The notes beneath the pieces are model-generated. The model did no database searches, was not told the DNA's origin, and worked only from the letters and a program-made list of their open reading frames with translations. The translations under genes were made by a program, and so were the position numbers. Below are positions 1-32,000 of a DNA stretch of 32,000 nucleotides, piece after piece (position 1 is the first letter of the stretch; each line of letters starts with the position of its first letter). The stretch is from NCBI GenBank assembly GCA_004563595.2, contig CP042461.1, forward strand, positions 1,110,001 to 1,142,000. The letters run 5' to 3'. The DNA comes from Candidatus Saccharimonadota bacterium. Its GTDB lineage: Bacteria; Patescibacteriota; Gracilibacteria; BD1-5; UBA6164.

Positions 1-252
1 TCACTCTTTAGATTCGCTCAGCAGCTCTTAACAGATGCTGAAGTGTTAAAAAAATGTGAGAAATGTGAACTGTTAATTAAACAAACTGATAGTCCGAAAC
101 CAGCTCAAGATCTCTTTGAAAAGGAGTTAAAAGAAAATCCTGATATAGGCGGATGCTTTAACGCTTCTGATGATATGAGCCAGGCAATTACAAAAGTTTT
201 TGACGGTGCACTAGATCAATGTAAGTGCAATAAAGATAACAAAAGCGAATAA
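1..252 (+). CDS. C-terminal fragment of a hypothetical protein (5' end lies outside the window)
   Basis: Frame 1 is open from base 1 to TAA at 250-252 (...SLFRFAQQLLTDAEVLKKCEKCELL...DQCKCNKDNKSE*). A strong hairpin terminator follows. No family recognised. Confidence 0.5.
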   Translation, partial: SLFRFAQQLLTDAEVLKKCEKCELLIKQTDSPKPAQDLFEKELKENPDIGGCFNASDDMSQAITKVFDGALDQCKCNKDNKSE

Positions 253-278
253 AACATTAGGTTTTATTCGCTTTTTAC
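245..278 (+). terminator. Rho-independent terminator
   Basis: GCGAATAAAAC / GTTTTATTCGC forms an 11-bp perfect stem (245-255 pairs with 261-271) with a 5-nt loop, followed by TTTTT. It overlaps the stop codon of the upstream CDS. Confidence 0.65.
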
Positions 279-355
279 TTTCATATACAAGAAAAAACTT
301 TCACTTTTCATTGCTTTTCAATATAATAACTGCAATTAAAATTTTACAAATATAC

Positions 356-1558
356 ATGGCCCAAGTTGGAATCAGAGAATTTGATGCAAAAGCAATGTAC
401 TATGAATCTATATGAGAAAACTACGCTTGATATCAAATAAAAAAAACACTTGATATATCTCTCCTTTCCCCTGAAAAAAAGTATGTTATTAAACCTGATA
501 TGCTCTTTTGAAAAAGAGGAAAAAGAGGGCTTTTATGACTGAAACTTGATAAAAACTGAGTAAATAATTGGCTTCATAATAAATTACATTCAAAAGTAAA
601 TATAGACTGAGTTGATTGAGAATTAGATGTATTTTTAGCTGAAGAATTCTCCCCACTCACAAAAGAATATTATATATCTTTTTCTCAGGATCGAGACTGA
701 GACACTCTCACATTTTCTTCTGAATGAGGAATAGATATAGAAGAAAACTGGAATAAAACAACAAGTATTGTACTCTCTCCCCTTTCAAACCTTCACAAAA
801 CAGATCTAGAAAAAATTTGAATAGATGAAAGTTCCCTACAAAAAATTATTACGAAACTCTGGAACTTTTATAGAAATTATTGATTTGTATATTTAGAAAT
901 CAATCCACTATGAGTTGATAAAAATTGAAATTTTATAATCGTTGATATGGTTGCGAAAGTTGATAACTGTGAATTTTTTAGACAAAAAGATCATTGGAAA
1001 ACTCTAGAATTACCTCAAAGTTTTGGATATAAAGAAAATAAAAAAGAAAAATATATACGTGAACTTGATGCTCAAACATGAGCAAGTATGAAATTTAAAA
1101 TACTCAATAAAGATGCCGAAATTTGGACTCTCCTTGCTTGAGGATGAGGCTCCCTCGTCATTACTGATACTCTCTGAAGCTTATGATTTGCTGATGAAAT
1201 ATGAAACTACTGAGAACTCTCAGGAAATCCTGATAGAGAAAATACAAGAGAATATACCAGAGCCCTTATAGAACAAATGCTCGAAAATAATATCAAGTGA
1301 AAATATCTCATCATCGCATGAGCTATAGCAAATTTCACAAAAATTGATACTACCTTTGCTTGAATTATTGATATACTTGAAGAAAAAGCAGTAGAATTAC
1401 AAGAGCAAAAAATACAAATATTGGTAAGAAGAGGCTGACTCAATGATAAAAAATGATTAACTATTATAAAAGAGGCTTGTGATAGACTCTGACTTCCTAT
1501 AAAAATCGCAAATTCAGACATATATATGACAGATATATTAAAAGAAATTACATTATAA
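356..1558 (+). CDS. aclB: ATP-citrate lyase, ATP-grasp (beta) subunit
   Basis: 400 aa with TGA read as Gly. It is colinear with the N-terminal ~425 aa of ATP-citrate lyase: KPDMLFGKRGKRGLLGL, SSEGGIDIEENW, YLEINPL, EIWTLLAGGGGSLVITDTLGSLGFADEIGNYGELSGNP, IIAGAIANFT, VRRGG. By hand count there are 26 in-frame TGA codons, several at invariant Gly. Trp is encoded by TGG. Confidence 0.85.
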
Positions 1559-1569
1559 AATAAATATTC

Positions 1570-3360
1570 ATGTTTTCCAGAAACTCATTTGCAATAATAT
1601 ATTGATTACAAACTCAAGCAGCCCAAAAAATGCTTGATTTTGATTATCTGTGTGAAAGAGAAGCTTCAGTACTTGCTTTTATTAACGCAGGAAAACAAAA
1701 GATCAACCACAAACTCTTTTATTGAGACACTGAGATCTTAATACCTAGTTATCCAAATATAATTTCTCTTCCAGAACAAATCAAACAAAAAACTGACACT
1801 CTCGTAAATTTTGCATCTTTTAGAAGCGCAGCTCAGGCAACAAATGAAGCACTTGAAAGTAAAATATTCAAAAATGTTATTATCATCGCAGAATGAATTC
1901 CAGAAAGACAGACAATAGAGATCATAGAAAAAAATAAACAATACTGAGTCAATATTATTGGTCCTGCAACTGTTTGAGCCATGTCAGCATGAGAATTTAG
2001 AGTATGAAACACCTGAGGAAGTTTAGATAATATTGTCAGCTCTAAACTGTATCAAAAATGAAGTATATGACTTGTATCCAAGTCTGGTGGAATGAGTAAT
2101 GAAATGAGGAGAATAATCGCAGATAGAACAAATGGAACAAGTATATCTATTGCCCTTGGTTGAGATAAGTATAACATAATGACATTTACTGATGTCATGA
2201 AAAATTTTGAAGCAGACGATGAAGTAAAAATGATTGTTATGCTCTGAGAGATCTGATGAAGAGAAGAAAATAAAATAGCTGATATGATAACTGCCTGAGA
2301 AATCAAAAAACCAGTGGTTGCTTGGTGTATAGGAACCATTGGTGATACTCTCAAATGAGATGTACAATTCTGACATGCATGAGCAAAATCAAATGCAAAT
2401 GAAGAAACAGCCAATTATAAAAATAATAAACTAAAAAAGGCCTGAGCCCATGTTCCTGAAAGTTTTATAGATTTTTGAGATAAGATAGAAGAAGCATATC
2501 ACCAAGTTAATCCTGGTTTTCCTAAAGAAGAGGGGGCTAGGGGCTGAAGTTATAATATATCTGAAAAAATAAAAATCATGAACAATAGAAAATCTACTCA
2601 ATTTACATCCACTATTTCAGATGAAAGATGAGCAGAACTCACTTACAATAAAAGACCTATTTCTGAATATGCTCAAAAATGAAGTTTTGCAGATGTAATC
2701 TGAAACCTATGGTTAAAAAAAGATTTACCTGAATATGCACTTGATTTTATTAATACAACTTTGATACTTCTTGCTGATCACTGACCTGCCGTGTCAGGGG
2801 CTACAAACGCTATTATTACTGCAAGAGCAGGAAATGACTTAAAATCATCTCTGATCGCATGATTAACTACTATTTGACCGAAGTTTGGTTGAGCAATTGA
2901 TGGAGCTGCAAATTATTTTTCGCAAGCAGTACATGATAAAATTACTCCTGAAAAATTTGTTGAATCAATGAGAGAAGCCGAAATAAATATTCCTGGAATA
3001 TGACATAAAGTAAAGTCAAAGTTTAACCCAGATAAAAGGTGTGAAATACTCCTAAATCTGAGTAAAAAGTTCCCTCAAGCACAACATTTACAGTTTGCAC
3101 TTGAAGTAGAAAAACTCACTCTAGAAAAAAAATCAAACCTTATACTGAATGTAGATGGAATGGTTGCAGCAATGTTTCTAGATATATTTCAAGATATATG
3201 AATGGATTATGAAGAGATAAAAGAATATATTGATATCTGAATATTTAATGCCTTCTTTATCCTTGCAAGAACAACAGGTTTTATAGGACATATAATAGAT
3301 CAAAAGAGATCAAAAGAATGACTCTATAGAACACCTTGGGAAGATATCATGTATGATTAA
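1570..3360 (+). CDS. aclA: ATP-citrate lyase, alpha subunit (CoA-ligase plus citryl-CoA lyase domains)
   Basis: 596 aa, starting 11 nt after aclB. Motifs: IIAEGIPE, GPATVGAM, SKSGGMSNE, the catalytic-His motif VQFGHAGA, then the citrate-synthase-like part [49 protein letters not shown]. Many of the Gly residues in these motifs are TGA. Confidence 0.9.
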
Positions 3361-3403: not shown

Positions 3404-4105
3404 TTAATAATTTACATTAAATCACTCTTTTTTTTCATAAAGAGTATTCATTTTTTTATCTCAGCTTCACAAATGAAACATAACTTTCAAATATTGATTT
3501 AATAATGCATGTTTCCATATTCATTTTTTTGTAAACCTCCTTGCTGATGTAATAATTTTATCATTCAAAATAACTGGTCTTGATATTTTTCTCATTCTTT
3601 GAGAAAAAATAGTATCCTCAAAAATATCAATATTTGGGAAACCTCATACCTTTTTTACTACATCAGTCTTCGCAAAGATAATATGATCTAAATACAATAT
3701 AGATTTTAATTTTCCTCTTACATTATTTGAGTACCAAGAAGTAAAATCTAATAATAGATTTTGCATATCAAAACTATGAGAATACGCACCCCATATATTC
3801 TCTCAAGACATTTTTTTCTGTATTTTAAAAAAAGTATTTTTTGGAAGAATTGAAACAGGGTGGTGAAAGACAACTATATTTCATTTGATTTGCTCCAGTC
3901 ACTTATTCAATCTCTCTGCCCTATTTGAGTTGGGAAATGAAATCACTCTTCCATATTTTTCACATAATTCTACCGTCCCATCAATACTTCCATTATCTAC
4001 TGTAATAAGCTCAGTTTCTGTATTTTGGTTTTTTATTCCTTCTAATACTTTTGCTAGATAATTATTTCTGAGTTCATTATTTGTCGAAAGAATAACTGAT
4101 ATCAT
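3404..4105 (-). CDS. Family 2 glycosyltransferase
   Basis: 233 aa. MISVILSTNNELRNNYLAKVLEGIKNQ...ITVDNGSIDGT (GT2 N-terminal fold with the DxD-type motif), GNIVVFHHPVSILP, VGGFPNIDIFEDTIFS. ATG at 4105, TAA at 3404-3406. Confidence 0.8.
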
Positions 4106-4125: not shown

Positions 4126-5493
4126 TTAATAGAGAACAACTTTTTTATTCGTAAATGCTTTCAGTCCATCTGGTCAATTTTCTTTCCCATATCCGCTCTT
4201 TTTGACTCCTCCAAAAGGAAGTGAAGCTTTTGATCCAGCTGGTTTATTTATAAAAATCATTCAGGTTTCCACTTGTGAAGCCACTTGTATTAATTGTTCT
4301 TGATTGTCTCAATACACACACCCACAAAGTCAAAAATCTGAGTCATTTGCAATTTTAATTGATTCTTCGATACTTGAGGATTTAATAATAGAAGCTACTG
4401 GTCAAAACACTTCTTCTTTATAAGAAGTCATATCCGCTGTAACATTTTTTAATACTGTTGGAGCAAAAAAGAATCATTTTCTATCCATAGCTTTCCCTCA
4501 TACCAAAAGCTCTGCTCATTCTGAAACAGTTTTTGATACTTGATTTTCTATATCCTTTACAGCTCATTTTTTTGCAAGTGGAGGAATTGTTGTGGAATGG
4601 TCCATAGGGTCTCAAGCTTGAAGTTCTGAGAACTTCTTGGCAAATTTTTCACAAAATTCATCATAATATTTTTCCAAAACTATAAACCTTTTCGAAGAAT
4701 TACATTTTTGACCTCCATTTGCCATTCTTGCTTGCGCTCATGCTTCAACTATTTCATCTAAGTTATCCGTGTCACATACAATAAAAGCATCATTTCATCC
4801 AAGTTCTAAAACTGATGGTTTCAAATTATTTCAAGCAATAGATCATATTACTTTTCAAGCTCCTTCACCACCGGTAAGGTTTACTCAAGCAATATAATCG
4901 TTTGATAAGATAAACTCCGTTTTACTTGATGAGACAAGCATATTTGTATATATTCATTCTCTAAAACCTGCTTGTCTAAATAGATCTTCTAATTTTTGCG
5001 CACACATCGGAACATTTGATGCATGTTTATAAATAACAGTGTTTCATGCTAATATATTTGGGATTGCTGCTCTCAATACTTGGTTATATGGAAAATTCCA
5101 TGGTGCTACTCAAAAAATTACTCCAAGTGGATCATACATATATTTCCCTTTGAGTCCCTCTGTTTCAAATTCTTCTTCTCAAAGAATTTCCTCAAAATTA
5201 TTTGCAAACCAACGAATCAATTTTACAGTTCACTTTACACCTCATACTGATTCAGTATCCAACATTCACATTTCAAGTGTTTGAAGTTTTGCTATTGCTT
5301 CAAGATCTGACTCTATTACATCTGCGAGTTGTAAAAATAGCTTTTTTTTCTCAGATCTCGGAGTCCTTTTCCATTCCTGGTATCCTTCATGAGCTATTTT
5401 TATTTTATTCTCTATTTGAGTATCATCTAACAACTCAAACTCAGCATTTACTTCCTCAGTATATGGATTTATAGATTGTATTGTATTTTTCAT
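4126..5493 (-). CDS. NAD(P)+-dependent aldehyde dehydrogenase (succinate-semialdehyde dehydrogenase-like)
   Basis: 455 aa. The N-terminus is INPYTEEV...WKRT. Motifs: ELGGNDAFIV (second G is TGA), the catalytic-Cys motif ANGGQKCNS, and C-terminal LPFGGVKKSGYGKENGPDGLKAF. No in-frame TAA/TAG by hand scan. Confidence 0.85.
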
Positions 5494-5571: not shown

Positions 5572-7191
5572 CTATTTTATATCTCCATCAATCGGGTAGT
5601 CAAAATCAAGATCAATTATTTTAATTCATTTTTCTTTCAATGCATTTTCAATTGTAGTTTTAAAATCTTCTTTATTTTCAACTTTATATCATTTTGCTCA
5701 GAAACTTTCTGCAAGTTTCACAAAATCTGGATTTCAAAAATCAAGTCAGTAATTCTCAAATCATGCTCAAGTTTGTTTCCACTTAATCATTCCATATGAG
5801 TTGTTATTTAAAATAACAATGACGAGATCAATTCATAATCTTACAGCTGTTTCTAGGTCTCATAGGTTCATTACAAGTCCTCCATCTCATGTTACGGAAA
5901 CTACTTGTTTATCTGGATTGAGCCTACATGCTTCCATTGCTGATGCAACTCATGCTCACATAGTAGCAAAGGCATTATCAAGAAGAATAGTATTTGGTTT
6001 ATACGCTGGATAATTTCTTGCTAACCAAACCTTATAGAGTCCATTATCAAGAGTCAAAATATCATCATCTCATAATACTTCTCTGAGTTCTTTTGAAAGT
6101 CTTCTTGGCATCATATAATCATGCTCATCTTCAAGAGAAATATTTTGCTCTATTTTTTTTCTGTTTTCTCAGTTTATTTTATACATTTCATCAAAATCCC
6201 AAGATGAATTATCAACATCTATTTCGTCAAGTTGCCAAAATGTATTTCATATATCTCATACCACTTCTAAATATGGAGCATATACTGGATCTATTTCAGT
6301 GGAATAAAAATTTATATGAATTGTTTTTGTTCCCTGTGTTCATACTACCGTTGTAGGTTTTTCAATTGCATCATACCCAACTGATAAAATGAGATCAGCT
6401 GTATCAATAATATCATGTAAGTAATCCCCTGATGTCAGTGCTGCTGTTCAGATATATTGAGATAATCTTTCATCAACGACTCATTTTCACATTTGAGAAC
6501 TAAAAAATGGAATATTATATTTTTCTATAAATTTTGTCAGATATTTGCTGATTCTTTTTCTATTTGCTCATGCTCAAATAAGAGTAATAGGCTTTTTAGC
6601 TTTTTCTAGCTCAGTTTTTAATATCTCAAGCATTTTTTCATCTATCTGTGGTCTTCTAATTTTAAGTTCTTCTGTAATGACTACTTCTTCACTTACAGAT
6701 TCACCTGCAATATCTTCAGGAAGTTCGATCGCTACTGCTCCTGGCCTTTCTTCTTCTGCTATCCTAAAAGCATTATTGAGAATGTATGGGATTCTATCCG
6801 GACTTACTATAGAAGTTGAATATTTTGTAATTGGCTTCATCATAGAAACAACATCTATAATTTGAAACTGTCATTGCTTTGATTTTTTTATTGGTTTTTG
6901 TCATGTAATAACCATCACTGGCATTCACCCTAGAGTAGCATATGCCACTCCTGTCACCATATTTGTGGCTCCAGGCCCAAGTGTTGCAAGTGCTACACCA
7001 AGCTTCCCAGTAAACCTTCCATACGTTGCTGCCATAAAAACAGCTGTTTGCTCATTTCTCGTAAGAATCAGCTCTATTTTTGAATCCTTTAAAGAGTTCA
7101 AAAAATCTAAATTTTCCTCTCCTGGAACTCAATAAATAGTTTCCACTCAATGATTTTCTAATATTTTTATAAATAGGTCTGTTGCTTTCAT
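5572..7191 (-). CDS. Thiamine-pyrophosphate enzyme, acetolactate synthase (AlsS/IlvB) family
   Basis: 539 aa. The N-terminus is MKATDLFIKILENHGVETIYGVPGEENLDF...ATLGPGATNMVTGVAYATLGGMPVMVITGQ. The TPP-binding motif is VTGDGGLVMNLGDLETAVRLGIDLVIVILNNNSYG. ATG at 7191, TAG at 5572-5574. Confidence 0.85.
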
Positions 7192-7275
7192 AGATATATG
7201 GTTAATAAAACTTTCATATAATACCAATTTTTTAAAACTTTTCTAAACATTTTTTGAAATAAAAAAAATTACTTC

Positions 7276-7393: not shown

Positions 7394-7436
7394 AAATCGA
7401 CTAAAATTCACTTAAAAGTGAGTTTTAGTCGATTTT
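7394..7436. terminator. Long hairpin terminator after the response-regulator gene
   Basis: AAATCGACTAAAATTCAC...GTGAGTTTTAGTCGATTT forms a stem of about 16 bp with one G-U pair. The regulator's TAA stop (7425-7427) sits inside the 3' arm. Confidence 0.55.
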
Positions 7437-8081
7437 ATATCAAAATCATTTGATAGTATGGATAAGCTCTTTTGATAATTTGTGTCTAATATTTGATATA
7501 TAAACATCTAATTTTCCATCAGAATCAAAGATAGAATCTCATCATCCCCATGCATATTCAATTATATCTGTTCTTGAAGTAGGTGTTCATCTATTTTTGA
7601 GAAGTAACTCTATTATTAAATATTCTTTTTGAGTAATAAGCACATCCTTTGAATCTTTTGTGAAGATTCTTTTTGACATATCTATCTCTATATTATTAAC
7701 AACAAGTACTGAATTATCATCATTTTTTCTCAATATTGTTTTTATACGGGCCTCTAATTCTCTCAGATCAAAAGGCTTCACAATATAATCAACTACTCAA
7801 TAATCAAATCAAATGAGTTTGTCATCTATTGAATCTTTTGCCGTTATTATAATAATAGGTATTTCATTTCCTCTTTCTTTTAATTTTCTAGCAATAGTAA
7901 AACCATCAATTTCAGGCAACATAACGTCAAGGAGGATAAGATCATATTTTTTACCCAATGCTGAATCTAATCCTGACTCACCATCAAAACACCTATCAAT
8001 CTCAAAATCTTCTAATTCTAAATACTGTTTTATACTATCTGATATTTCTCTGTTATCCTCAATCAGTAAAATCTTTGCCAT
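7425..8081 (-). CDS. OmpR/PhoB-family response regulator
   Basis: 218 aa. The receiver domain reads MAKILLIEDN...DLILLDVMLPEIDGF...IIIITAK. The winged-helix output domain reads ITQKEYLIIELLL...LDVYISNIRHKL...IKGFGYKID*, and its conserved C-terminal GxGY only appears when two TGA codons are read as Gly. Confidence 0.9.
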
Positions 8082-8094: not shown

Positions 8095-9423
8095 TTAAAA
8101 TGTAATTGTAAACTGAGTCCCTTTTCATGTCTCGCTTTCTACTTTTATAGACCATTTATATAAATCAATAATTCTCTTTATAATAAATAATCAAACTCAA
8201 AATCATTCTCTTTTTGTATCTGCTCTATAAAACTTATTCCAAATATTTTTGAGGTCCTTTTGCTCAATTCAAATTCAATTATCTTTTACCCAAAATTTAC
8301 TCTCATCCAGTCATACCTCAATAATAGCCTCGTTTTGAGAGAATTTCACCGAATTTGTAAGCAGATTCTCTATTATAATGTTAAAGGTTACTTTATCAAT
8401 ACATTTTATAACTCCTGGTCTTATCTTATATTTTATAGTAATCTCTTTATCTATTAATCCTTTTATTATGCTATCAATAGTTGATTTTAAGAGTATTCAC
8501 AAATCCACCTCCTCCCTCTCAAATTCTTCAATTCATTCTGTTTTTCTTGACAGTAAAAAGAGTGTTTCTAAAAGGTTGTTCAATTTTTTTGTATTATGTT
8601 TAATTGATTCTAGTAATACTTCTACATCTTCTTTTGAACTTTTATTTTTCTCAAGCATTTTATAATACACATCAATTTTTGAATTTATTATCATAAGAGG
8701 AGTTTTAAACTCGTGACTTACATCTGTAATAAATTGACGTAAATTTTGTGTTTGAGATTGGATTTTTTCAAAAGATGAATTGATAGTATCAGCTAATATT
8801 TTTATTTCATCTCCTTGGCATCAATAACACTCAATTTTTTTGAAATTATCGATATTAATCCCCTGTGCTTCGTGAGAAATTTTCCTCAAATCTTTCAACA
8901 TATATTTCGAGAAAAGTTTTCAGGTAAAGTATGATAAAAATAAAAATATAAGAATAATTATAAAACTAATTTTAATAATGATAATTTGAGATTTGATATA
9001 TGGAGTTGTATCAAAAAGAACCTTTACTTCTCCTATCTCTTCATAATATTGAGAAAATATAAAATATATTTTTCCATCCTCTTTATAAAAATATGAATCT
9101 TTTATTTCATCGAGCTTTGCTATATCATTATGAAGCTTCTTTGATACTCCATTTGAACATATAAGTTCTCATTCGGGTGGAATAATTATAGTATCTTTTT
9201 GTAAAATATAACTTTTAAAAGCCTCAATATTATTTTTACTAAACGTTTTTGAATATGCATCATAATTTATATCCATATCATACAAACTTTCTTGTTTTTG
9301 GTCTTCATACCACAAGAAAAAGTATATTACATTGATTGATAAAAGTAATACAATAAGTGAAAGTAGGTTTACAAGAGCAAATGTAAACGAAATTTTGTCT
9401 GTTGTTTTAAATTTTTTAAACAT
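8095..9423 (-). CDS. Sensor histidine kinase (HisKA + HATPase_c)
   Basis: 442 aa. There is an N-terminal TM segment (FTFALVNLLSLIVLLLSINVIYFFLW), the H-box FITDVSHEFKTPL, and the C-terminus RIIDLYKWSIKVESETGKGTQFTITF*. Its stop is 13 nt upstream of the regulator ATG. No in-frame TAA/TAG by hand scan. Confidence 0.85.
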
Positions 9424-9432: not shown

Positions 9433-10701
9433 TTATATTTCTCCTCTGTCTCTCATGGCATCAAAGATTCTCGTCATTGCCACAATATATGCAGCTGAAC
9501 GGAGTGTTGAAGAGTATTCTAAAGAAGTATGGAATACTTTTTCCGCTGCTCAACTAATTTTTTTATGTAATTTTTGATCTATTTCTTCTTCTTCCCAATA
9601 GAAGTTCATATTATTTTGAACTTGTTCAAAATAACTTACCATTACCCCCCCTGCGTTTGCGAGAATGTCAGGAATAACGATCGTGAAGTTTTTATGAAGT
9701 ATTTCATCTGCTTCCGGAGTAATAGGTCCATTTGCAAGTTCTAAAATAATCTTTGCTTGAATGTTTAAAACATTATCTCATGTGATTTGATTTTCAAGAG
9801 CAGCTGGAATCAAAATATCACATTTTACTTCTAATACTCATTTTTCTGCTAATTTTTCAGCATCATCATATTCTATTACTGATTTTCTTGCAGCTTTTAA
9901 TTCAGATATTTTTTCTATATTTATTCCATTTTCATTATATATTCCTCACCTAGAATCAGAGATTCAAACAATATGCACTCAGAGGTCAACAAGTAACTTT
10001 GCCATAGTAAGTCCCGCATTCCCAGCTCATTGAATAGCTACCTTTTTTCCTTTGAGCTCTATATCTTTTAATTCTAATATTTTTTGCAATACATACACTC
10101 ATCCTTGAGCTGTTGCTTCTCATCTTCATGCTGATCATCCAGAGCTTAATGGTTTTCAAGTAAATGAACCTGGAGAATACTTTCAAACAAGCATTGAATA
10201 TTCATCCATCATCCAACCCATTACTTTTGGATTTGTATTTACGTCTGGAGCTGGAACATCTGTTTCAGGCCCAATATATTTATATAATTCTCTCACATAC
10301 CCTCTTGAAAGTCTCTCTAACTCCCCGTCTGATAATTCTTTTGGATTTACGATAACTCATCATTTTCATCCTCAGAGTGGAATATCTATAACAGCACACT
10401 TAATACTCATCCACATAGACAAAGCTTTTACTTCTGATTTATTTACATCTTGATGAAAACGAATTCCTCATTTAAATGGTCCTCTTGCATCATTATGTTG
10501 GGACCTAAAACCTATAAAAGTTCTAATAGATCCATTATCCATTCTTACAGGAATATTTACTTCTATAATTCTTCTTGGGTGTGAAATAAGCTCATATTTA
10601 TTGGTATCTAACCTACATCCATCATATAAGTCACAAGCCTTTCTCATTTGTTTTCTTGCATTTAAAAATGCATCATTTATATTTTGTTCTAACACCTTCA
10701 A
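9433..10701 (-). CDS. gdhA: Glutamate dehydrogenase (Glu/Leu/Phe/Val dehydrogenase family)
   Basis: 422 aa. [34 protein letters not shown] (first G of KGG is TGA), IPLGGGKGG, C-terminus [23 protein letters not shown]. No ATG is available upstream of the conserved N-terminal helix, so the start is TTG 10701 or GTG 10695. The stop lies 9 nt before the kinase ATG. Confidence 0.88.
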
Positions 10702-13924: not shown

Positions 13925-13953
13925 TTGAAAAATCTAAACCTTTATGATACAAT
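13925..13953 (+). promoter_or_regulatory. Candidate sigma-70 promoter (TTGAAA-17 nt-TACAAT)
   Basis: TTGAAA at 13925-13930, a 17-nt spacer ending in TGa, and TACAAT at 13948-13953. If functional, transcription would start near 13960 and the downstream ORF would begin at ATG 13973 rather than ATG 13952. Confidence 0.3.
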
Positions 13954-20832: not shown

Positions 20833-20900
20833 AAAAAAAATATATAGAAATAAATTATATCCTATATATTTTCTCATATTTTGAATATTTTTGCAAATAT

Positions 20901-22010
20901 CTAATACTCCAAATTTGGGTAATTTTTATTTACTTGTTTAAAATGTTCTATTTGTCTTTTTTTTGCACGTATTATGACCTCTGAACTAGGATTTAATTCT
21001 TTCATTAAAGTATCCATTCATAAAATCACATAATCTATTTCCTGAGATATTTCTTCTCATAACTTTGTTAGTTTTGCGTATTTTTTTATTACTTTTTGGA
21101 GAAATTTTGTTTTTATGTGATATAAAACTATTTTTTCTAACCACATCATATTCTCTCATAAATAGCCATTTTTATAAGCCTTCATAATAATATACATTGT
21201 TGGTGCAAAAGCGTGATATCCAAGAAATACTCCATAAATATGTCTCGCATCTGGTCTAATAGCAGAGTAATACTTTTCATCCTTATTATTGAGGATAATT
21301 GGATCAAATTGAAGTAATAGATTTAATTTATTATGCGATGATTCATGAATAATCGCTTCTAAATTATTGATTTCAGGGCAACTTGAATTAATGGTATATC
21401 CTAAATAAATATGACCAATACATTCATTATAACTTGCCGAGTTATGTATTGATTTCGCAGTTCCAAGTGGCACAATTTTCTGAATAATTTGATTGAGTTC
21501 ATCGTAAGTTCATTCATCTATTTGTTGCAATAATCTGAATGTTTTCTCGTAAACTCATAGCCATTCTTCTTCTCATCTTTCTCACCATCACAATATTCAT
21601 CAAGTTGTATGATGGTCAGGGTGTGCTTCAAAGATATTATAGGGATTATTATCTTTAGCCGTAAGCCTCACATTTGTTCATGAAATTTTTTGTCACTGAT
21701 TCATGCAAAGGTTTTTACTCCCAATTCACTCTTCTAAATATATATTTATTTCATTTTTTAATTTTTGTTGTTCTATAGCATAAAATTCCTCACTATCTAG
21801 ATCATTAATAATCAGAAAATTTATTATCCCAGATTGATCAGGGTTTAAGATAAAATCCCTATTTTCAACTATTAAGAGTTCCTCTATCTCTTCTGATAAG
21901 ATTCAGTTATTTCTTAACTTTTCTAAGTGAGAGATGAGCCTTTTATAGTATTTTTCCAAATATTCCTTTAATAAAGCTGAGTTTTTCTGTCAAAGTACGT
22001 AGTATTTCAT
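20901..22010 (-). CDS. HExxH-motif protein resembling aKG-HExxH-type peptide beta-hydroxylases (HEXXH motif domain, TIGR04267-like)
   Basis: 369 aa. MKYYVLGQKNSALLKEYL...IVPLGTAKSIHNSASYNECIGHIYLGY...LEAIIHESSHNKLNLLLQFDPI...YYSAIRPDARHIYGVFLGYHAF. ATG 22010 is the first ATG after TAG 22032-22034; TAG stop at 20901-20903. The assignment rests on the HExxH motif plus the downstream R-P-x-x-R/H-rich segment only. Confidence 0.65.
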
Positions 22011-22067: not shown

Positions 22068-23384
22068 ATGCAATATTTTTTGTACTTACTTACTATTCCC
22101 TTTTTATATTTTAACTTTAAAATTGTTCTTTCTGATCTTAAATTTAAGATCATTCCAAATAAATACTTAGCAAAAATACTCTATATGCTCCCTATATGGT
22201 ATGCGTATTTAATCCTATGATGAACAATTATAGTCTCAGATGTATGGTTCATTATCCTACAAATATTTCTATCTTTCATTATTTCATTTTGACTATATGC
22301 TTATGGTATATGGTCAGCTTGAGATGCAAAATACTTATTAGTATTATCGCTATTTATCCCTCATGTATGAACTCTTACATTTATATGAAACATTGCATTG
22401 TTAACTCTTACATATTTATTGTTATACTTTATTTACTTTTATATATGAAAATGTATACTTCAATCCACATATAGAAAAAGTTTATATTGAAATATTTTTA
22501 ATGACATTAAAGAAATATTTCAATATAAACTTCAGAATAAAACCTCAGAAAATTATAAACAAAAAATCATATATAAAATATCTTTATGAGTGATAAATTT
22601 TTTCGTTATTTTTATCATTTTTAGGCTCTTAAGAATTGCAACATTAAACTGGCTCTATAGTTCATGAACTGATTTTAGCATCATTTCAACAACTGTTTCT
22701 CAGCACAGCACCTTGGTAGTTTTACTTTTGATAATTATTGTATTATGAGCCTTCTATGTAACTAAGAAGATAATGTATTTTTTCAAAAGAATCTTACATG
22801 ACTTTTTTTGAACACAAAGTAAGTATCTCTATAATTGAGTCCTACTACTCAGTTTATCATGTTATATGCTATATGAATATGCATATCATCCCCTAGAAAT
22901 TACCCAGAGTATTACCCTTATTTTTACTGTTTATTTATCTATTTACCTATTTATTATCATACTCAAGTATGCCTCTAAGATTACTTTTCAATTATGAGAA
23001 GAAAAAAGTATTCAAGTAAGGTCCCTAAAGAAATGAGATATTATTGATAAAGTATATCTAAAAAATGTGATAAATAATGTAAATCACAAAAATAAAAAAA
23101 CGGTCGATAACTATAAAGAGGCTCTCAATATCATAAATAATTCCAGCTATCAACTCACCGTCGATGATGTAAAAAAAATACAATCTATTATTAAACAAAT
23201 AAATACAGATTGTAGTACTGATCGCATAATGGCATCTTGATTTCAGTCCATCAATAACATAAAAGTTATGAATACTTTTTCTTTTTGATGATATATCTGG
23301 TCTGGTTTTATGTTGAGTGTCTTCTTATGAAGTTATTTCTCAGAAAAAATAGTACTCTCCTTACAACACATGTTCAGAATATAA
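22068..23384 (+). CDS. A24-family (prepilin/preflagellin peptidase-like) membrane aspartic peptidase with a long C-terminal extension
   Basis: 438 aa. MQYFLYLLTIPFLYFNFKIVLSDLKFKIIPN supplies the first catalytic-Asp context. GLYAYGIWSAGDAKYLLVLSLF supplies the GxGD-type second Asp (the G preceding D is TGA). Several further hydrophobic segments and a ~110-aa soluble stretch follow (KKGDIIDKVYLKNV...). It is the only plus-strand gene in the right half. An alternative TTG start exists at 22038. Confidence 0.6.
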
Positions 23385-23406: not shown

Positions 23407-24135
23407 TTAACTTTTAGATGTAATATCTCGTGACTGTAGTATGTATATAGTCCCCCCTCTTACTGTGAATTCAATATCTTGTGCTTTGTCTAATATTCAT
23501 TCAATTTCCCTACATTTTTTATATAATAAATCACTAAAATTAATAAGAATATCTTCTTCAAAAAATAATGATTCAAATCTCGTACTTTGCTTCTTCTTCT
23601 CGCTTACTCATAGATAATTTTCTCCTCCATAAAAACTGTAAATTTTAAGTTTTGTTGTCTCTCTGTCAATTCCGAAACAAAATGGTTTTTTAATCTCTCA
23701 CTGTACTAGGGGTTCATTTATTCCTGGTATGATCTCAAAATAACACTCATTATTATGATGTTTTGTGAAACATACACCACTAAAATCTCCCACAATAAAT
23801 TCTTGTAAAATATATTTCTTTTCAAGCTTTCATATATCAAGGTTATGTAAATCTTTATAATGAGTATATTTTTCTGTTGTTTGTTCCTCACATATATTTA
23901 CCGCATATTTTAAATCTGCGTGAGTGTAAATTGGTGCATACGATTCAAATATTCATGCGAATGCATGACTACTACTATCTTCACATGAAAAAGAAGATCT
24001 AAGAATGAAAGGAGGGTCTAATTGAAGAGTAGAAATATCATGTATATCACTATATGTCTTACGTACAATAAAAGATGGAACATTAAAATTACTTTCCAGT
24101 AATAATTTCAGATTATCAGCTTTTGCTCAATGCAT
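23407..24135 (-). CDS. PEP/pyruvate-binding ATP-grasp domain protein (PPDK_N, PF01326-like), stand-alone
   Basis: 242 aa. MHGAKADNLKLL..NVPSFIV, FILRSSFSCEDSSSHAFAGIFESY, LQEFIVGDFSGVCFTKHH...IIPGINEPLVQGEIKKP, DIEFTVRGGTIYILQSRDIT. All four blocks of the PpsA/PPDK/rifampicin-phosphotransferase nucleotide-binding domain are present. Confidence 0.75.
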
Positions 24136-24140
24136 AAAAT

Positions 24141-25145
24141 TTATTTAATATTAATTTTCTTAGATACCGTATTAATTTCTAGAGTATCATCATTTTGACA
24201 AGAAAAAAATATACCTTCTGCTCCCAGCATTAAAGGAATTCATAACTCTCTACATGTAATTGCTGCATGGGATAATTCTGAACGAGTTTCAACACATATA
24301 CATTGTGCATTATAAAATGCCCTCAAAAATTCTGGATTTGTATTTTCTGCGACCATAATACTTCATTTATTTAAATCACTGGCAGATTCAACATTATAGA
24401 CTTTATGCACTTTTCATTCATAGCTATCTTGTTGTATTGAAATATTTATATCGTAACTTATACTCCTCCTCTGCGTTTTTTGAGAATCAAAATATTGTTC
24501 TATGCTAGAATATCACATGTTCAATATTTCTTGATAGAACTGAATTGCTCTTTTAAATTTAACAGCTTGAAAACGAAAAAAGTATTTTTCAAGTATGCTC
24601 TGGTATTTAAATGTTTTTTGCTGAAGATTTTTAACAATAGAAATATATTTAAGATATTCTGAAGTATAAAAATTATAATTCTCTTGAATATCACTTACAT
24701 CACAGTTAATCATATTAATAATTTCAGCTGATCAGAGCACATAATCATTATCACGTATTTTTTGAAATGAATATTCTTTTTCAAAATCAAGAGAAAGAGG
24801 TAATCATTCTACCATGATATGTTCATTTTTGAGCTCGTTATAGTGTTTTTGAGAACAAATAAATATATCAATTTCAAAACTTTTGTTCAATAATTTTTCA
24901 TACTGACATTGTAATAATCAATGTTTTTTAGATGGGTAAAATGCTCCTAAATCACATCAAATTGAAATAGGTATGTATATTTTAATAGATGATAAATCAA
25001 TATGTAATATATCAGTCAATCTCTTGCTGACCAATACTGGTAATAATCTATTATCTAATAAGATTCCCTGTCACTGAAAAAAATCATGCTGTAATAATGC
25101 AATAATTTCTTGTATTTGTTCTTTTAAACTAAGACTATGTTTCAT
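24141..25145 (-). CDS. PEP-utilising-enzyme mobile (swivel phospho-His) domain protein with an uncharacterised ~230-aa N-terminal domain
   Basis: 334 aa. The C-terminus reads KGSIMVAENTNPEFLRAFYNAQCICVETRSELSHAAITCRELGIPLMLGAEG, matching the PF00391 pattern G.ilV....P......a.aivt..G...SHaAI.aRElGIP. Its stop is 5 nt before the ATG of the ATG-grasp... of the ATP-grasp gene. Confidence 0.7.
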
Positions 25146-25147
25146 AT

Positions 25148-27046
25148 CTATTTTATAGGATTTAATTCACTATCTCAAAGTTTATCATAATAAGTAGTCC
25201 AAATTCATTCACACTTATCATACAGTTTACATCATTCACATTTTTTTGTTCTGACTCTTCATGTATTTTTTCTTCACTCTACAACATCATCGTTATAAAA
25301 ATCTGGTGCACTATGGGTCACATTTGTATATATATCAATCTCTTTTAATTCTGAAATATTATCTTCTAAGTAATCTTCAAAGTGGCATAAAGGAACATAT
25401 CTTACTCGATAGATCATACCATTTGCATTTCCCCAATCGAGAAGTTCTCTCATATGTGGTGAAGCTTCTGATATTTTTGGCATAAGTTCTTCAAAATTAT
25501 CATGAACCCCTCACACATTTGGATCAGCAAATATAAATTCAGAACTTCAAAAGCACTTAAGTTTTTTTACAAATTTTCAAATTCAAAGTACATTATCAAA
25601 ATTTCACTTCTCAATTGCTGTATTGGTACCAATGCTTTCATTTGGAAATCATAATTCTTGCCAGATTTGAATTCATTTTATGAGTTTATCAAACGCTCCT
25701 GGAACTGCTACTAACTTATCATGTAATTCTGCATTATCGGCATGAATCGAAAATACTACGCTATCAAGAATATCCATATCATAAAGTTTTTGAGAAAACT
25801 CACGGTCAGAAAATTTCAATCAGTTTGTTACCAAATATACATGACGAAAATGAAGAGATTTAATAAATTTCATGATCACAAAAAAATCTTTTCTGATAGT
25901 GACTTCTCATCATATAATCTCCAATATTTCAGTTCCATTTTGCTTTGCAATTAATATGTCTTTTAGGACTTCTTTCGTCGTTCTATTTATATTACGTTTA
26001 TTTAAATCTATACAGAACCTACACACAATATTACATCCATATCATACAAAAATAACCGTTTTTTTTCATGCAAAACTATCTTTTACATCTTCAATTGGTT
26101 TAAATCTAAAATTGTCAGTGTTTTCAATAATTTTTAATTTATCAATATCTTTTTTATAAAATGGCTGTATTTCTTCTTTTCAATTAAATTCACAATAGGT
26201 CTCGTGAATTCACATACAATACTTTGATAACTTACATGTACTACACTTCCCTGTAAAAGTGATTTCATGACTTGGAAGTGTTCTCCACATGTACTTCCAT
26301 AGTTTTTTTTCTTTTATGGTACACAGCGGAAAATGATACAATTTAAATTTATCTACTCAAAACTTTTCTCAATATTCCAAAAAAACCTTCTCATTTACTC
26401 ACATAACCTGAGTATAATTCATTTTTGTGAGTTTGATATTATCAATTGCTTGTCATTCAAACTCCATCATAATCGTAACAACACTATCAACCTGAGGAAA
26501 ATATTTATATATCAGTTCATACATTTTATCTAAAAACTTATAGTTTTGTCATTGAATAATAAGTCTTAATTCAAGAGTTTGATTATTAAATTTTTTATAT
26601 TTAAGGGCATTATGGATTCACTTCAATAGTTCTTCCCATGATCATTTTTTTCTCACAATTGCTTCGTGAGTTTCTTTGTTATAACCATGAATAGGAAATA
26701 CCAAATGATAATTTTCTAGGGTTGCTATTTGTTTCATAAAATCTATATTTGCAAACCTATCTCCATGCGTCAATTGTACCAGTGTTGATTGTGGAAATTT
26801 TTCTCTTATATATTGAAGTATTTTAAAATAATCTGGGTTCAAAGTTGGTTCACCTCATGTAATAGTCCAGTCATCTTTTAAATCAGGGAATCTATGAAAA
26901 TTTCTATCGTCACCTGATAAAAACCCATCAATTCTTGTTTTGATGGCCTCATAATGATAATCTTTTAATGTATATTTATAGTCAGCATCGTTTGAACACA
27001 TAGTACATTTGTGATCACAAGCTGGCCATAAGGCAATATCTGGCAT
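25148..27046 (-). CDS. Fused double radical SAM protein (two complete radical SAM modules in one 632-aa ORF)
   Basis: Module 1: WPACDHKCTMC (CX3CX2C, 26996-27019), ITGGEPTL, and the C-terminal Cys motif FPLC...GKCSTCKLSKYCMGIHETYC. Module 2: GYGCNIVCRFC (26012-26035), EIIGGEVT (GG is TGA TGA), YVPLCHF...KKCEGCKLYDKCEGIWTTYYDKLGDSELNPIK*. I hand-scanned every codion... every codon between the modules and found no TAA/TAG. The stop lies 2 nt before the next ATG. Confidence 0.75.
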
Positions 27047-27051
27047 ATTCT

Positions 27052-27570
27052 TTAGGTTAATTCATTAATAAGCCATTTAAAGAGAGGAAAATGCTCTCAC
27101 TTAAATGTATATAATTCAGAACATTCATAAGTAAAGTAAAGAAAATAATCTACTATATTATCTGTTTCAATTACTCATTTTTGTCATTCTCATATTTTCT
27201 TTCCATTTGAAGTATCTATTATCTTATTCAGAAAAACTTCATTTTTTCAAAAATCAAAGTAATCCTTATATCACTTGATAAACTGAATATCTGTATCAAA
27301 ATGAGAAAAACTTATCTTATACATTTCTTTTCTAAATCGAAATGTATATCAATTATCGAATTGAACCTCTCAGAGAAGATAAAAATAATAAAAAAGTAGC
27401 TTTTTCACTTCTTGAACCTCATTAATGTTAAAATCATTACAAGCTAATGTAGATTTTAAATAGTATAAAAGTTCGAACTGTCATATATTTTCTGTCTTAT
27501 AGGGGTTTGTTAGTCAGATAACTTCCTTGTATTGCTGGTTATCAAACAGCCTTAATATTTTATCGTTCAT
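27052..27570 (-). CDS. Hypothetical protein (172 aa)
   Basis: MNDKILRLFDNQQYKEVIGLTNPYKTENIGQFELLYYLKSTLA...FKGEHFPLFKWLINELT*. ATG at 27570 lies one codon after an in-frame TAG. The stop is 5 nt before the double radical SAM ATG. No family recognised. Confidence 0.5.
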
Positions 27571-27647
27571 ATCCTATATTAGTATCATAATTTTTCATTC
27601 ATAGCAATTATATACAAATCTATATCATTCCCAAAAATAAAACTCAT

Positions 27648-28829
27648 TTATCTCACCTTTCACTCATCTATGTATAGCAAATAATTATAGCACAATTTCT
27701 CAATATTCATTAAGCCTTGGAATGCTTTACTTTCTCAAATATGATGCTCTCGATATAAAAAGGCTAAAGAAAACATAATCTCATCTGTTTCATCATTAAT
27801 ATATTTTCCATAATAGTTTAAAAAATCTTTCTTCGAGTTAGAAAAAAGAACATCTGACTTCAGATTACTTTCTAGAGAGAGGATTTGCATATTTTCATGA
27901 AAATTTAATTCAGAAAATTCATTGAAAAATTTTTGAACACTCTGTTTCAAGTATATGTAAAAATTTTCATAATCTCATAAAATGAGATTATTCTCTGCTA
28001 AAGTTTTATAAAATTTAAAATCATTTTTATTATTTATTTCTGCATCATGCAAAATTGTCATTAAAATATCTTGTGACTCATCATACTTTCATATCTTCTT
28101 TAAAGCTGCGGCTTTTCAAATAAATGGCTCAGGCTGACGATACTTATAATATGTTTCATTTAAAATAATAGATCCATTGAATAATGATATTGCTTTTTTT
28201 TGATCTCATAATGCAAGATAAATATATCCGAGCCGACTATATATAAAAGTAGGGATTTCAGAATGAGTATATCTTTTTTCAAGAATTTTTACGGCCTTAA
28301 TACAATACTTTTTCGCTGCACTCAGATACTTCTTATCTTTGTGCATTCTATATAATCGAGTTCCTAAAAAACGGGAGTATGCACAAAGCACATAAGGATT
28401 ATCAGTGTTGCATTCTAATAATTGTCTAAAAATTTCATTCATCTCTCGGCTTCATTTATTGTCATAGTATCGTACATACGCAGCGAGTGCATAGAAATTA
28501 TATTTATTTTCTTTCAATAATTCATCAACATTCTCTCATTGCTTCTGAGACATAAAGCATGGGTCAAGAATAGACTCATTTAAAAATAAAAAAATGTACC
28601 TCTTATCATATCAAAGAATAGACTCTCTACATTCACTAAAACCAATATCTAAATCCTGACGAGTATCTATATTCTTAAAATAAAAATATGGTCGTTGAAA
28701 CTTTTCTCTGCCTTTTAAATATCCCTTATATCAATGGTAATAAGCAAAATAATCTAAAAAAACCTCAAAGTCTTCTTTGTTCTTGAATTCTACCATACGC
28801 TCATATATATTATCAATAAATACACTCAT
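27648..28829 (-). CDS. TPR-like repeat protein
   Basis: 393 aa. TPR-like helical repeats, for example NPYVLCAYSRFLG, IYSRLGYIYLALGDQKKAISLFNGSI, FIGKAAALKKIGKYDESQDILMTIL. The first ATG at 28829 overlaps the upstream radical SAM ORF by 20 nt; an alternative ATG is at 28796. TAA stop at 27648-27650. Confidence 0.6.
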
Positions 28830-29679
28830 AGCAGCTTGAAAATAAGTCTCTTTTAGAATTAATTTCTTCTAATCTATTATAATAACGATCAAAATCTTTC
28901 TTTATTTTTTCATCGCTATCATACACATTTAACATATTTCTATTTTTTGATAAATAACATATATTCGTATGCATTGTTAAATCTCAATTTAACATAATAT
29001 TTATCTCATTCTCATCGTGAGTAAATGTCCCCAACTCATCTTTATATTTCATAAAGTAATAATACTTACAATTATCAGTTCATAACCTTGTAGAAACGAA
29101 TTTTTTACTATCATGAATGGGATATGGGTGTTTTCAAAATACTAAGTCTACGTTTTTAAACTTTTGTCATAGATAATATAAAAATTTAAATTCTGAGTTC
29201 TCAATGCTATATCTCACACTAAAAGGAGAAAAATAATTATGAGTATTGAGAAAATGGAATACTTTTACCCAATCTTTTTTATACTTTGTTACATTCATTT
29301 CATTTATATTTGAAACAAATGTATACTCAATGTTATAGATATTTTTTATTTCAACTAAATTTTCAAGGTACTCTTTATTATATGGGACAAGTCAAGATAC
29401 TTGAATAATAATCTTTAAATTTGGCTGAAATGAATGTACATACGTAATAAGATCAATAATATGCTTATTTGCAAACATATTACTTCAAAAAAAGGTAAAT
29501 CACTGTAAATAATCTCAGTCTACAATCAAAAAGGTTTTTCTAATTGACTCCTTGAGTTGAAGAATTTCTTCATCAGAATAAATACTCATTTCCATGACTC
29601 ATTCTTTACATGTATCACACCTCGTTATACATCCATGTCATAACTTAGTTATTAATTTTGGAACTTGGATTTTTAACAT
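28810..29679 (-). CDS. Small radical SAM protein, paralogue A (289 aa)
   Basis: MLKIQVPKLITKLGHGCITRCDTC (CX3CX2C). C-terminal Cys residues: TDNCKYY, LNGDLTMHTNICYL, SSCYECIYG*. The architecture is shared with the next two ORFs. Confidence 0.7.
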
Positions 29680-30613
29680 TATTATAATGGTTTACAAAGT
29701 ATGACTGGCAAAAATTACAAATATTTCAATCCTTTCATTTATTTTTATAATCATTCGACATAGACTCTAATGATTTTTTTAACACTATCGAATTCTCTAT
29801 TAAATCACTCTTTTTACTTTTAATATTTCATATTGAAAGTTCTTTGATTGATGAACAATATGGTCAATGTGGCATTATTTGATTTTCTGAAAAATCAAAC
29901 ATAAGAATATCTAGGTCCTTGCTCTTATCTGATATATAGTTCTTGGAAAGAAAAGAGCACTCCTTTTCTCATGAATATGAAAATAGCTCTGTTGAAAGGT
30001 CAATGTAACTTATAACTTTTGTTCATTCGCCTTCGGTAAAATACAATTTAGTGCCACTATCTAATAGTCATCTTAAAACATTTAAAGTTTTGTTTTTATC
30101 TACTCTATTCGAAGAAGAGTTTATTTCTCTATGTAAAATGAGTTTAGATTCTATATTTTTCCTTTTTAATAAATGTAATTTTGCAGGAATATCGTCAGTC
30201 AAAATATCCTCATTTAACCTTACAGATATTCAAAGTTTTATGGAAAAAAAAGGTTGAAAAATATCTATAAATTCTTTCACATCTGCATCGAAAATACCGT
30301 TTATATTTTTTATTTTTGTATATACCAATAGCTCATCTTTTCGCTTTAAAATCTTAAGTTTCATCAAAGTATAAATATATTTTTTAATGAAAGCTATGTT
30401 CGTTACAAAGTCTCAACACTGATTTAATGAAAGTGAATTATATGTAAGGTTATTTTTTTTTGCAAAATAAGAAAATTTCACCAAAAATTTGAGGTCTATT
30501 TTGCTTAATATTTCCTCGTTTCTGTTTGAGCTTATACAACTATAACATCATCTCGAACAATTATAATTATTAGGTATCGGATTCAAAACGAATCAATCAA
30601 TATTTATTTTCAT
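29645..30613 (-). CDS. Small radical SAM protein, paralogue B (322 aa)
   Basis: MKINIDGFVLNPIPNNYNCSRGCYSC (CX3CX2C; the G inside the motif is TGA). C-terminal Cys residues: ENQIMPHGPYCSS, GNICNFCQSY. The 3' end overlaps paralogue A by 35 nt in a different frame. Confidence 0.7.
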
Positions 30614-30621
30614 ATGTATGA

Positions 30622-31491
30622 TTATTGATAACTATACTTCCCTTTAATTATACATTTATAACAATTATGTTCAAATGTTTTTTCTTCATTATTCACGCTA
30701 TTAAGATATGATTTAAAGCTATTAAAATCAAATATTCTTTTCTCATTATCAAAAAATATATTTGATATTTTTAAGTCTGCCAAATAACACCTCGGAATAT
30801 GTGGTCTAATATCTCAATTTATAGATATTTCTAGGTCATAATATCAATCAAAGTCTTCAAAAATAATATCATTATTTTTGACTAAGAATGAGTTATGATA
30901 TTTGCAAAGTACATCTTCACTTGTTACAATTTCGTTATCATTATCAATCTGTAGTGCCTCAGAAATACTTAATTTCAATTGTTTATACCTTGTTAATAAT
31001 CGAAAATTTTTACTTTCTATTAACTCTATTTTTTTCTTATAATATATTTGAAATGAAATATTATCAATATAATCCTCCAAAAAAAATTCTAATAGCCTTA
31101 CCAATGATTTAAAATTATAAGTATTCAGGTTACTAATTGAAGTAGAAACATAAACTTGTATATTATATTTTTGTAATAAATATGCTAATATTTTATAAGT
31201 TCAAGGTTTATAGATATTTATATCTGAAATTTGAATTGCAATTCATCATTTTGGATCGAATTGATGTATATACAACATCAGCTCATCTATATCGCCGTAC
31301 AGTAATGGATCAACTCAAAAACAAAATATCTCACAGTCATTATTAAAGACTTGAAAAGTAGTTGCAATATTTTTCTTTAATTCAGACATGTCATAATACG
31401 TCTGAGAGGTATAATTATCACTACATCAAGTACATCAAGTATTACAACCTTTTCAAAGTCTGAAAAGGAGCCTTTTTGCTCCATATATCAT
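30622..31491 (-). CDS. Small radical SAM protein, paralogue C (289 aa)
   Basis: MIYGAKRLLFRLGKGCNTGCTGC (CX3CX2C with two TGA Gly inside the motif), CFGVDPLLYGDIDEL (GGEP-like), INGDIRPHIPRCYL, HNCYKCIIKG. ATG at 31491 lies one codon after the upstream gene's TAA. Confidence 0.7.
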
Positions 31492-31494
31492 ATC

Positions 31495-32000
31495 TTATAT
31501 ATTTATTAAATCACTCTGCCCATATGCAGAAATATACTCGTCAAATATTCCATAACAATCATCTTTAAAATCACACTTTCCACATTCTGGTAAATATGAT
31601 CTTCTTCCATAATCAGTATTATAGAGCTTATTCTCATATACCTCAGTTATATAATTTATCTTTTCAGTCTTCAGGTCAGCCCTTTTTTCTAAATCTCATA
31701 AAAATAAACATAGAGGGAATCAATCCCAGTATATTTTAATACCTTTTCCGTCAAACATTTCTATTGCTGATTTTATATTAAGAGAGGCTTCTTTCGGTGA
31801 ACAGAATAATGCATCATTATTTCAAGCACCAGAGGGTTCTAAAAGAGAAAACTTAATACTTAAGTTTTCATACGAAGTCTTTAAAAGACCATTCAAAGTG
31901 TCCTCTATGGAAGATAAATTATCAGAAATAACCACATAATTTAAAAATAATGAATCAAAACTTCTTTTTTTCAAAGAACCTATGATCTTTATGACTCATT
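31495..32000 (-). CDS. C-terminal part of a further radical SAM protein (5' end lies outside the window)
   Basis: ...IKIYWDGFPLCLFLGDLEK...RSYLPECGKCDFKDDCYGIFDEYISAYGQSDLINI*. The tail closely parallels module 2 of the double radical SAM protein (YVPLCHF...KKCEGCKLYDKCEGIWTTYYDKLGDSEL). The CX3CX2C motif itself is not in the window. Confidence 0.55.

Follow-up and report, generated by a model that had tools for sequence, protein, structure and literature searches.

TGA read as glycine in a 32-kb chromosome segment of Candidatus Gracilibacteria bacterium 28_42_T64

We analysed a stretch of bacterial DNA of 32,000 nucleotides (the window), with a guanine plus cytosine (GC) content of 28.8%, and the meaning of the codon TGA in its genes. 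With a probability of about 98%, we consider the window to be a chromosome segment from 'Candidatus Gracilibacteria bacterium 28_42_T64' that is read with translation table 25 (code 25): UGA serves as a regular codon for glycine, UGG codes for tryptophan, and translation stops at TAA and TAG alone.

Translations made with table 25 were 100% identical to six GenBank proteins of this organism: the ATP-citrate lyase subunits aclB (QFR39583.1) and aclA (QFR39584.1), aldehyde dehydrogenase (ALDH, QFR39586.1), glutamate dehydrogenase (GDH, QFR39590.1), a GGDEF protein (QFR39593.1) and a double radical-SAM protein (QFR39602.1). All named GDH relatives of the window were from Candidatus Gracilibacteria as well. 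An earlier interpretation, made from the letters alone (the sequence-only reading), had placed the source in Gracilibacteria or Absconditabacteria; exact protein identity to 28_42_T64, of the BD1-5 lineage, agrees with this placement and puts the window in the clade where UGA is glycine (GTDB class JAEDAM01, with BD1-5 and Absconditabacterales). The window belongs either to the 28_42_T64 genome or to a population assembly that cannot be told apart from it (ENA ERZ510998 NODE_17).

Gene structure and the meaning of TGA

Under table 11 the longest open reading frame (ORF) with a start codon has 155 amino acids (12146-12613, plus strand), exactly the figure that the sequence-only reading had given as the upper limit under the standard code; this ORF is spurious, being antisense to the GGDEF gene. 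When non-overlapping ORFs of at least 60 amino acids were selected greedily, table 11 covered 30% of the window with a mean ORF length of 83 amino acids; with TGA as a sense codon, 28 ORFs covered 96% of it, with a mean length of 366 and a maximum of 943 amino acids. The proposed comparison of coding density and ORF length between tables thus came out far higher for TGA as sense. In the control runs, coverage was 43% with TAG as sense and 73% with TAA as sense, and ORFs were short in both.

Arranged back to back, the 28 genes use 23 TAA and 4 TAG stops. They have full length, comparable with that of their homologues, and contain 431 in-frame TGA codons and no in-frame TAA or TAG. At the left edge of the window the 3′ end of a plus-strand gene (1-252) replaces a minus-strand ORF of the naive scan.

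Under the standard code the window would be a field of pseudogenes, or its TGA codons would be sequencing or assembly errors, and the lack of any table 11 ORF above 155 amino acids is what one would expect to see. Errors or decay of this kind do not explain why the interruptions are TGA and never TAA or TAG in genes of homologue length, nor why they are placed specifically at glycine positions (see below); also, the same sequence was independently assembled in ENA, JGI, Logan and the closed GenBank genome. As the pattern is specific to TGA and to glycine, and independent assemblies agree, we rejected this explanation and give it virtually no credence.

The glycine positions are easily recognized in conserved motifs. 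Both glycines of GGDEF are encoded by TGA TGA (12466-12471, minus strand); AGGGGS of ATP-citrate lyase has TGA at 1139-41 and 1145-47, and IQEGNVGL of sigma-70 region 2 has it at 17379-81 and 17388-90, all exactly where the sequence-only reading had located them. Its other examples held too: TGA encodes the first glycine of KGGIRFH in GDH, the first glycine of GDGG in the thiamine pyrophosphate (TPP) motif and both glycines of GFGY at the C-terminus of the OmpR-family protein, and the GGE motifs of the radical-SAM modules are written TGA-GGT-GAA and TGA-TGA-GAA. Conserved tryptophans, in YATWWIRQ and EIWTLL, use TGG as it had asserted.

For a quantitative assessment five proteins were aligned with solved structures from standard-code organisms, each TGA being masked as X beforehand, thus avoiding circularity. 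The pairs were ALDH with 4ogd, aclA with human ACLY (6hxh), aclB with Methanothrix concilii ACLY-A (6hxi), the sigma factor RpoD with 8x6f, and an acetolactate-synthase (ALS)-like enzyme with 13bb. Among 120 aligned TGA codons 86 (72%) fell on glycine, 9 on alanine, 4 on serine, 4 on arginine and none on tryptophan; GGN codons fell on glycine at 52 of 74 aligned positions (70%), and TGG on tryptophan at 13 of 17. Given a glycine background of 8.3% in the target chains, the binomial P-value for TGA on glycine is 9e-65.

A similar picture was seen in GDH, compared with 150 cluster representatives (clustering at 50% identity) that were 37-51% identical to the window protein. Glycine was the majority residue in 12 of the 18 TGA columns and made up at least 97% of residues in 6 of the 18; pooled glycine frequency was 62.5% in TGA columns and 72% in GGN columns, with a background of 9.1%, and TGG columns were 77% tryptophan. 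The few tryptophans in the TGA columns are mistranslated database entries. The alignment check suggested along with the assignment to glycine therefore supports it: TGA is found on glycine as often as GGN and never on tryptophan, and judged by these comparisons TGA is a glycine codon.

Code 4, which Mycoplasmatales and a number of insect endosymbionts use, assigns UGA to tryptophan; it deserves attention since tables 4 and 25 are indistinguishable by ORF structure alone and since most public gene catalogues store these proteins with W at TGA positions. However, these database W residues occupy universally invariant glycine columns, e.g. in KGGIRFH and GGGKGG, and none of the 120 TGA codons aligned with tryptophan, as compared with 13 of 17 for TGG. 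Amino acid composition argues in the same direction: glycine makes up 7.0% of residues if TGA is glycine and just 2.7% if it is not, and tryptophan, 0.54% when encoded by TGG, would rise to an abnormal 4.8% if TGA were added to it; only with TGA as glycine do these proportions look normal. The denial of code 4 in the sequence-only reading was right; the codon-to-residue alignments refute this code, and we regard it as extremely improbable.

TGA makes up 62% of the glycine codons of the window, in agreement with the claim that it is the major one (for aclB, a hand count of 26 TGA against roughly 10 GGN became 26 and 9 upon recount), though such a share is normal for low-GC members of the group. 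In 66 related loci, most of them with the tRNA described below, the TGA share of glycine codons ranged from 3% to 90% and was correlated with GC content at r = -0.89, with total glycine at ∼5-11%, mostly 6-8%; these figures are approximate, as ORF calling in this comparison was crude. The window (28.8% GC, 62%) is on the trend, and its TGA share is therefore not unusual. Mutational pressure towards AT (at 29% GC) favours the most AT-rich glycine codon, and this is why TGA has so large a share.

tRNA-Gly(UCA) and release factor 2

The accepted mechanism of this reassignment combines a tRNA-Gly having anticodon UCA with loss of release factor 2 (RF2) (PMC8629427; gTranslate preprint). By analogy with the relatives and the literature, UGA would be decoded in the source genome by a dedicated tRNA-Gly(UCA) with G1:C72, C2:G71, G3:C70 and U73, expected to be close to GCGGGGGTAACATAAAAGAGTGAGTGTACTAAGGCTTCAACCCTTGGGTG...CCCCCGCTCCA, and termination at UGA would be abolished through loss of RF2. 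In 2019, prfB was reportedly not detected in 28_42_T64 or in any of the other BD1-5 genomes that the authors had at hand, and prfA was present (PMC6851277); the supplements of that paper make no mention of tRNAs or prfB.

A tRNA scan covered a single genome of each species; its pattern combined universal tRNA positions (U8, A14, G53-T54-T55-C56-R57-A58 and C61) with glycine identity elements (G1:C72, C2:G71, G3:C70, U73) and a UUCAA anticodon loop. One conserved tRNA was present in at least 99 records, making up 99 of the 120 matches listed. In these 99 it has 76 nucleotides and an encoded CCA. The sequence exists in 34 different versions, all with CUUCAAC as the anticodon loop, and 8 stem pairs show compensatory changes. 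These matches were labelled Ca. Gracilibacteria (65), 'Ca. Peribacteria' (15), Patescibacteria group (9) and Ca. Altimarinus (1), with 9 records having no name. Invariance of the acceptor identity and of the UUCAA core is not independent evidence, being imposed by the pattern; the stem covariation and the taxonomic restriction are independent evidence for this tRNA.

Several observations weigh against UGA being an ordinary glycine codon throughout. About 28% of TGA codons fell on non-glycine residues in single homologues; since GGN codons did likewise (30%), we take this share as ordinary divergence. TAA and TAG were set as stops for the ORF calls, and occasional UGA termination is compatible with the sequence. 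The decoding machinery was not seen directly: there is no tRNA gene in the 32-kb window or in the 21-kb source locus and no release-factor gene in the window, and an Rfam search of the window returned no RNA family.

One could therefore imagine a dual meaning, with UGA mostly glycine and at some sites a leaky terminator or a selenocysteine codon. With ORFs delimited by TAA or TAG by construction, a true TGA-ending gene would be read through; moreover, tRNA-Sec has the anticodon UCA too, and the matches are given as 'SeC' by ARAGORN. On the other hand, the alignments reach the C-termini of the homologues and close at TAA or TAG, the back-to-back genes have no unexplained extensions, and the reported absence of prfB from 28_42_T64 speaks against termination at UGA. 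The selenocysteine version was rejected: TGA aligns with glycine rather than cysteine, and the tRNA of the relatives is an ordinary class-I molecule of 76 nucleotides with glycine identity, unlike the long-arm Sec type. All in all, a dual meaning has a very slim chance, and we retain UGA as a plain glycine codon.

Some features of the tRNA loci (L082-L201) are worth recording. The tRNA (e.g. L109, 6520-6595) has a D-loop of 10 nucleotides (AAAAGAGTGA). A sixth anticodon-stem pair, C29:G47 (U:A in two variants), is possible and would leave a variable loop of 4 nucleotides.

In two loci with RpoD 75% identical to that of the window, L102 (2353-4463) and L175 (3-1752), the gene order is rpoD, frr, tRNA(UCA) and a gene for a basic protein of 110 amino acids; this conserved protein adjoins tRNA-Gly(UCA) in 38 of 68 loci. 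The window has dnaG upstream of rpoD and no tRNA (14799-17990); therefore, the block is rearranged in comparison with L102 and L175. Related loci collected by GDH gave no tRNA gene of any kind in the close ones (L002-L007) and no UCA anticodon in the more distant ones. A linkage of the tRNA with DUF87, seen in L098 (ERZ4200980, a Saanich-type marine sample and an assembly distinct from ERZ510998), was dropped as it holds in just 5 of 120 loci.

The 15 records labelled 'Candidatus Peribacteria' that carry tRNA-Gly(UCA) (L095, L111, L112, L113, L120, L125, L144, L146, L147, L148, L154, L158, L162, L177 and L186) include one complete genome, CP060226.1; TGA-rich ORFs were found in 11 of them, i.e. 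in the 11 that entered the ORF analysis. The NCBI label 'Peribacteria' does not predict the genetic code, in accord with the naming problem described in the gTranslate preprint.

UCA tRNAs of other kinds were observed too. A Gracilibacteria metagenome-assembled genome (MAG), PL25b_bin.48, has a tRNA(UCA) that differs in sequence from the type found in the 99 records (L160, 4485-4561). ARAGORN confirmed UCA tRNAs with a glycine-type acceptor stem and U73 in six records of standard-code bacteria (L085, L104, L128, L145, L190 and L191; the record labels are Anaerolineaceae, Akkermansia, Archangium, Gemmatimonadales, Streptococcus sp. LQJ-218 and Thalassotalea). These resemble derivatives of tRNA-Gly(UCC) and could be natural opal suppressors or MAG contamination.

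Genes of the window

The window begins with the 3′ end (83 codons, no TGA) of an ORF of 98 amino acids (1..252, plus strand; source-contig gene call and frame-1 translation). It is followed on the same strand by a two-subunit ATP-citrate lyase (356-3360), whose best structure matches are the ACLY proteins of Methanothrix concilii and human. The beta subunit gene aclB (356..1558; ATP-grasp and citrate-binding domains by Pfam) has 17 of its 26 TGA codons on glycine in alignment with PDB 6hxi_A (E=5e-83). In aclA (1570..3360; alpha subunit, E=1e-144 to human ACLY in PDB) this fraction is 28 of 32, and TGA encodes the two glycines of the GHAGA active site.

A long run of minus-strand genes comes next. 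It includes genes for a family-2 glycosyltransferase (3404..4105; Pfam PF00535, 8 TGA), an aldehyde/succinate-semialdehyde dehydrogenase (4126..5493; PDB 4ogd, E=4e-97, TGA on glycine at 15 of 23) and the ALS-like TPP enzyme (5572..7227; Pfam, TTG start by the source gene call), with 16 of 27 TGA codons on glycine against PDB 13bb_A (E=5e-110). In the gap of 233 nucleotides between the latter gene and that of the response regulator, the source assembly calls an ORF of 38 amino acids with neither TGA nor glycine (7232-7348, minus strand); it could encode a leader peptide or have been called falsely.

The run continues with an OmpR-family response regulator (7425..8081; Pfam, 7 TGA), a sensor histidine kinase (8095..9423; Pfam HisKA and HATPase_c, 12 TGA) and GDH (9433..10695), which has a GTG start, 18 TGA and 22 GGN codons and is identified by its 150 homologues and QFR39590.1. 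Then come a UPF0102/YraN-like protein (10768..11127; Pfam, 5 TGA), thymidylate kinase (11156..11809; Pfam, 6 TGA, one of which encodes the last glycine of the P-loop GSGKGT), the GGDEF diguanylate cyclase (11899..13329; Pfam and QFR39593.1, 23 TGA) and a hypothetical protein of 125 amino acids (13436..13813; ORF call with no Pfam match, 1 TGA).

Three plus-strand genes encode a hypothetical protein of 253 amino acids (13952..14713; ORF call with no Pfam match, 13 TGA), DNA primase DnaG (14799..16469; Pfam and source gene call, GTG start, 25 TGA including those of CFGCHKGG) and the primary sigma factor RpoD (16617..17990; PDB 8x6f_E, E=2e-98). RpoD has 18 TGA codons, with 10 of the 12 aligned ones on glycine, and the two tryptophans of its YATWWIRQ are TGG TGG. 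On the minus strand follows a secreted protein of 943 amino acids (18046..20877; ORF call with no Pfam match, 58 TGA), a homologue of which adjoins rpoD in the relative L102.

The remainder (20901-32000) is a cluster rich in radical-SAM genes, of peptide-maturation type. It contains genes for an HExxH-type peptide beta-hydroxylase-like protein (20901..22010, minus strand; NCBIfam TIGR04267, 15 TGA) and a polytopic membrane protein (22068..23384, plus strand; ORF call, 19 TGA and 2 GGN); all others are on the minus strand. A phosphoenolpyruvate (PEP)-utilising enzyme is split in two ORFs in unusual order, the PEP-utilising mobile domain (24141-25145) and then the PPDK_N ATP-grasp domain (23407-24135; Pfam and NCBIfam, 15 TGA for the pair). 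The double radical-SAM protein, a fusion of an HxsC-like and an HxsC4-like part (25148..27046; NCBIfam and QFR39602.1), has 27 TGA and the GGE motifs.

A hypothetical protein of 172 amino acids and a tetratricopeptide repeat (TPR) protein of 393 amino acids (27052..28829) share 20 TGA and the sole CGG codon of the window. Beyond them, the span 28810..32000 has 35 TGA and holds three CX3CX2C radical-SAM-like paralogues (28810-29679, 29645-30613 and 30622-31491). It also has a further HxsC-like gene, truncated where the window stops and thus represented by its 3′ portion (31495-32000). Two of the CX3CX2C proteins, g25 and g27, are 25% identical, and g26 has the motif alone in common with them. 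Neither a His-Xaa-Ser repeat peptide nor any other obvious precursor was seen beside the HxsC-like radical-SAM genes.

Public collections and related genetic codes

In a large public protein collection, 101 of the 120 closest GDH relatives (P0001-P0120) have tryptophan at one or more universally invariant glycine columns; these 101 entries were translated with table 4 instead of table 25. The GDH of the window itself is stored in a table 4 version (P0001 and P0393) beside the correct GenBank version (P0391). The closest entry, P0001, located on ENA ERZ510998 NODE_17 (412,643 bp), is the gene of the window with W at all 18 of its 18 TGA positions; the cluster of P0001 at 90% identity also includes QFR39590.1, encoded on a contig of 1,343,103 bp.

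Gene calling with table 11 on this DNA yields fragments; a fallback to table 4 yields full-length proteins with tryptophan at ∼4% of positions, catalytic glycines included. For the lineage, mistranslation of this kind has consequences in homology searches, in structure prediction and in family profiles, and the practical value of the present analysis is a warning.

Table 25 is the Candidate Division SR1 / Gracilibacteria code of Campbell et al. 2013, Rinke et al. 2013 and Hanke et al. 2014. The code 25 assignment is correct, but it is already published for the same DNA, which is annotated with table 25, and it brings no new biology: knowledge of the code goes back to 2013, proteomics validated it in 2014, and the same genome was annotated with it in 2019. 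Metaproteomics in the lineage detected peptides unique to a database with UGA as glycine (PMC4032931). The genome of 28_42_T64 is closed, with 1.343 Mb and 28.87% GC, and code 25 was used for its gene prediction (Sieber et al. 2019, mBio, PMC6851277); its two-subunit ATP-citrate lyase with the GHAGA site was described as probably of archaeal acquisition (PMC6851277). We found no difference between this genome and the window, with a reported GC content of 28.87% against 28.8% and the same ATP-citrate lyase.

The window likewise agrees with table 25 organisms in general, sharing UGA as glycine, UGG as tryptophan, TAA and TAG as stops, low GC content and a place in the candidate phyla radiation. 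In the relatives, tRNA-Gly(UCA) is present, and absence of prfB has been reported; here too no difference from the window was found.

A further departure from the standard code has been predicted in neighbouring lineages, CGA and CGG as tryptophan in Absconditabacteria and CGG as tryptophan in some Gracilibacteria (Shulgina and Eddy 2021, Codetta, PMC8629427). The window is like the Absconditabacteria variant in having UGA as glycine and depleted CGN codons (of 10,034 codons, 15 are CGA and 1 is CGG). It differs in that CGA falls on conserved arginine at both of two informative sites, codon 113 of aclB compared with human ACLY, and ILQSRDIT of the split PEP-utilising enzyme (23407..25145) compared with YIVQSRPIT of PEP-synthase-like proteins (PDB 5hv6 alignment); on these alignments CGA appears still to be arginine. 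The single CGG codon, in the TPR protein, is at an uninformative position, and that CGG is unassigned or captured for tryptophan, in addition to UGA being glycine, seems unlikely to us.

Organisms using table 4 (Mycoplasma/Spiroplasma as well as Hodgkinia, Zinderia, Nasuia and others) also resemble the window: their genomes are small and AT-rich, RF2 is lost, and UGA, formerly a stop, has become a sense codon read by a tRNA whose anticodon is UCA. The difference is in the amino acid, which is tryptophan in these organisms, whereas in the window UGA is never found on tryptophan and the tRNA of its relatives bears glycine identity elements.

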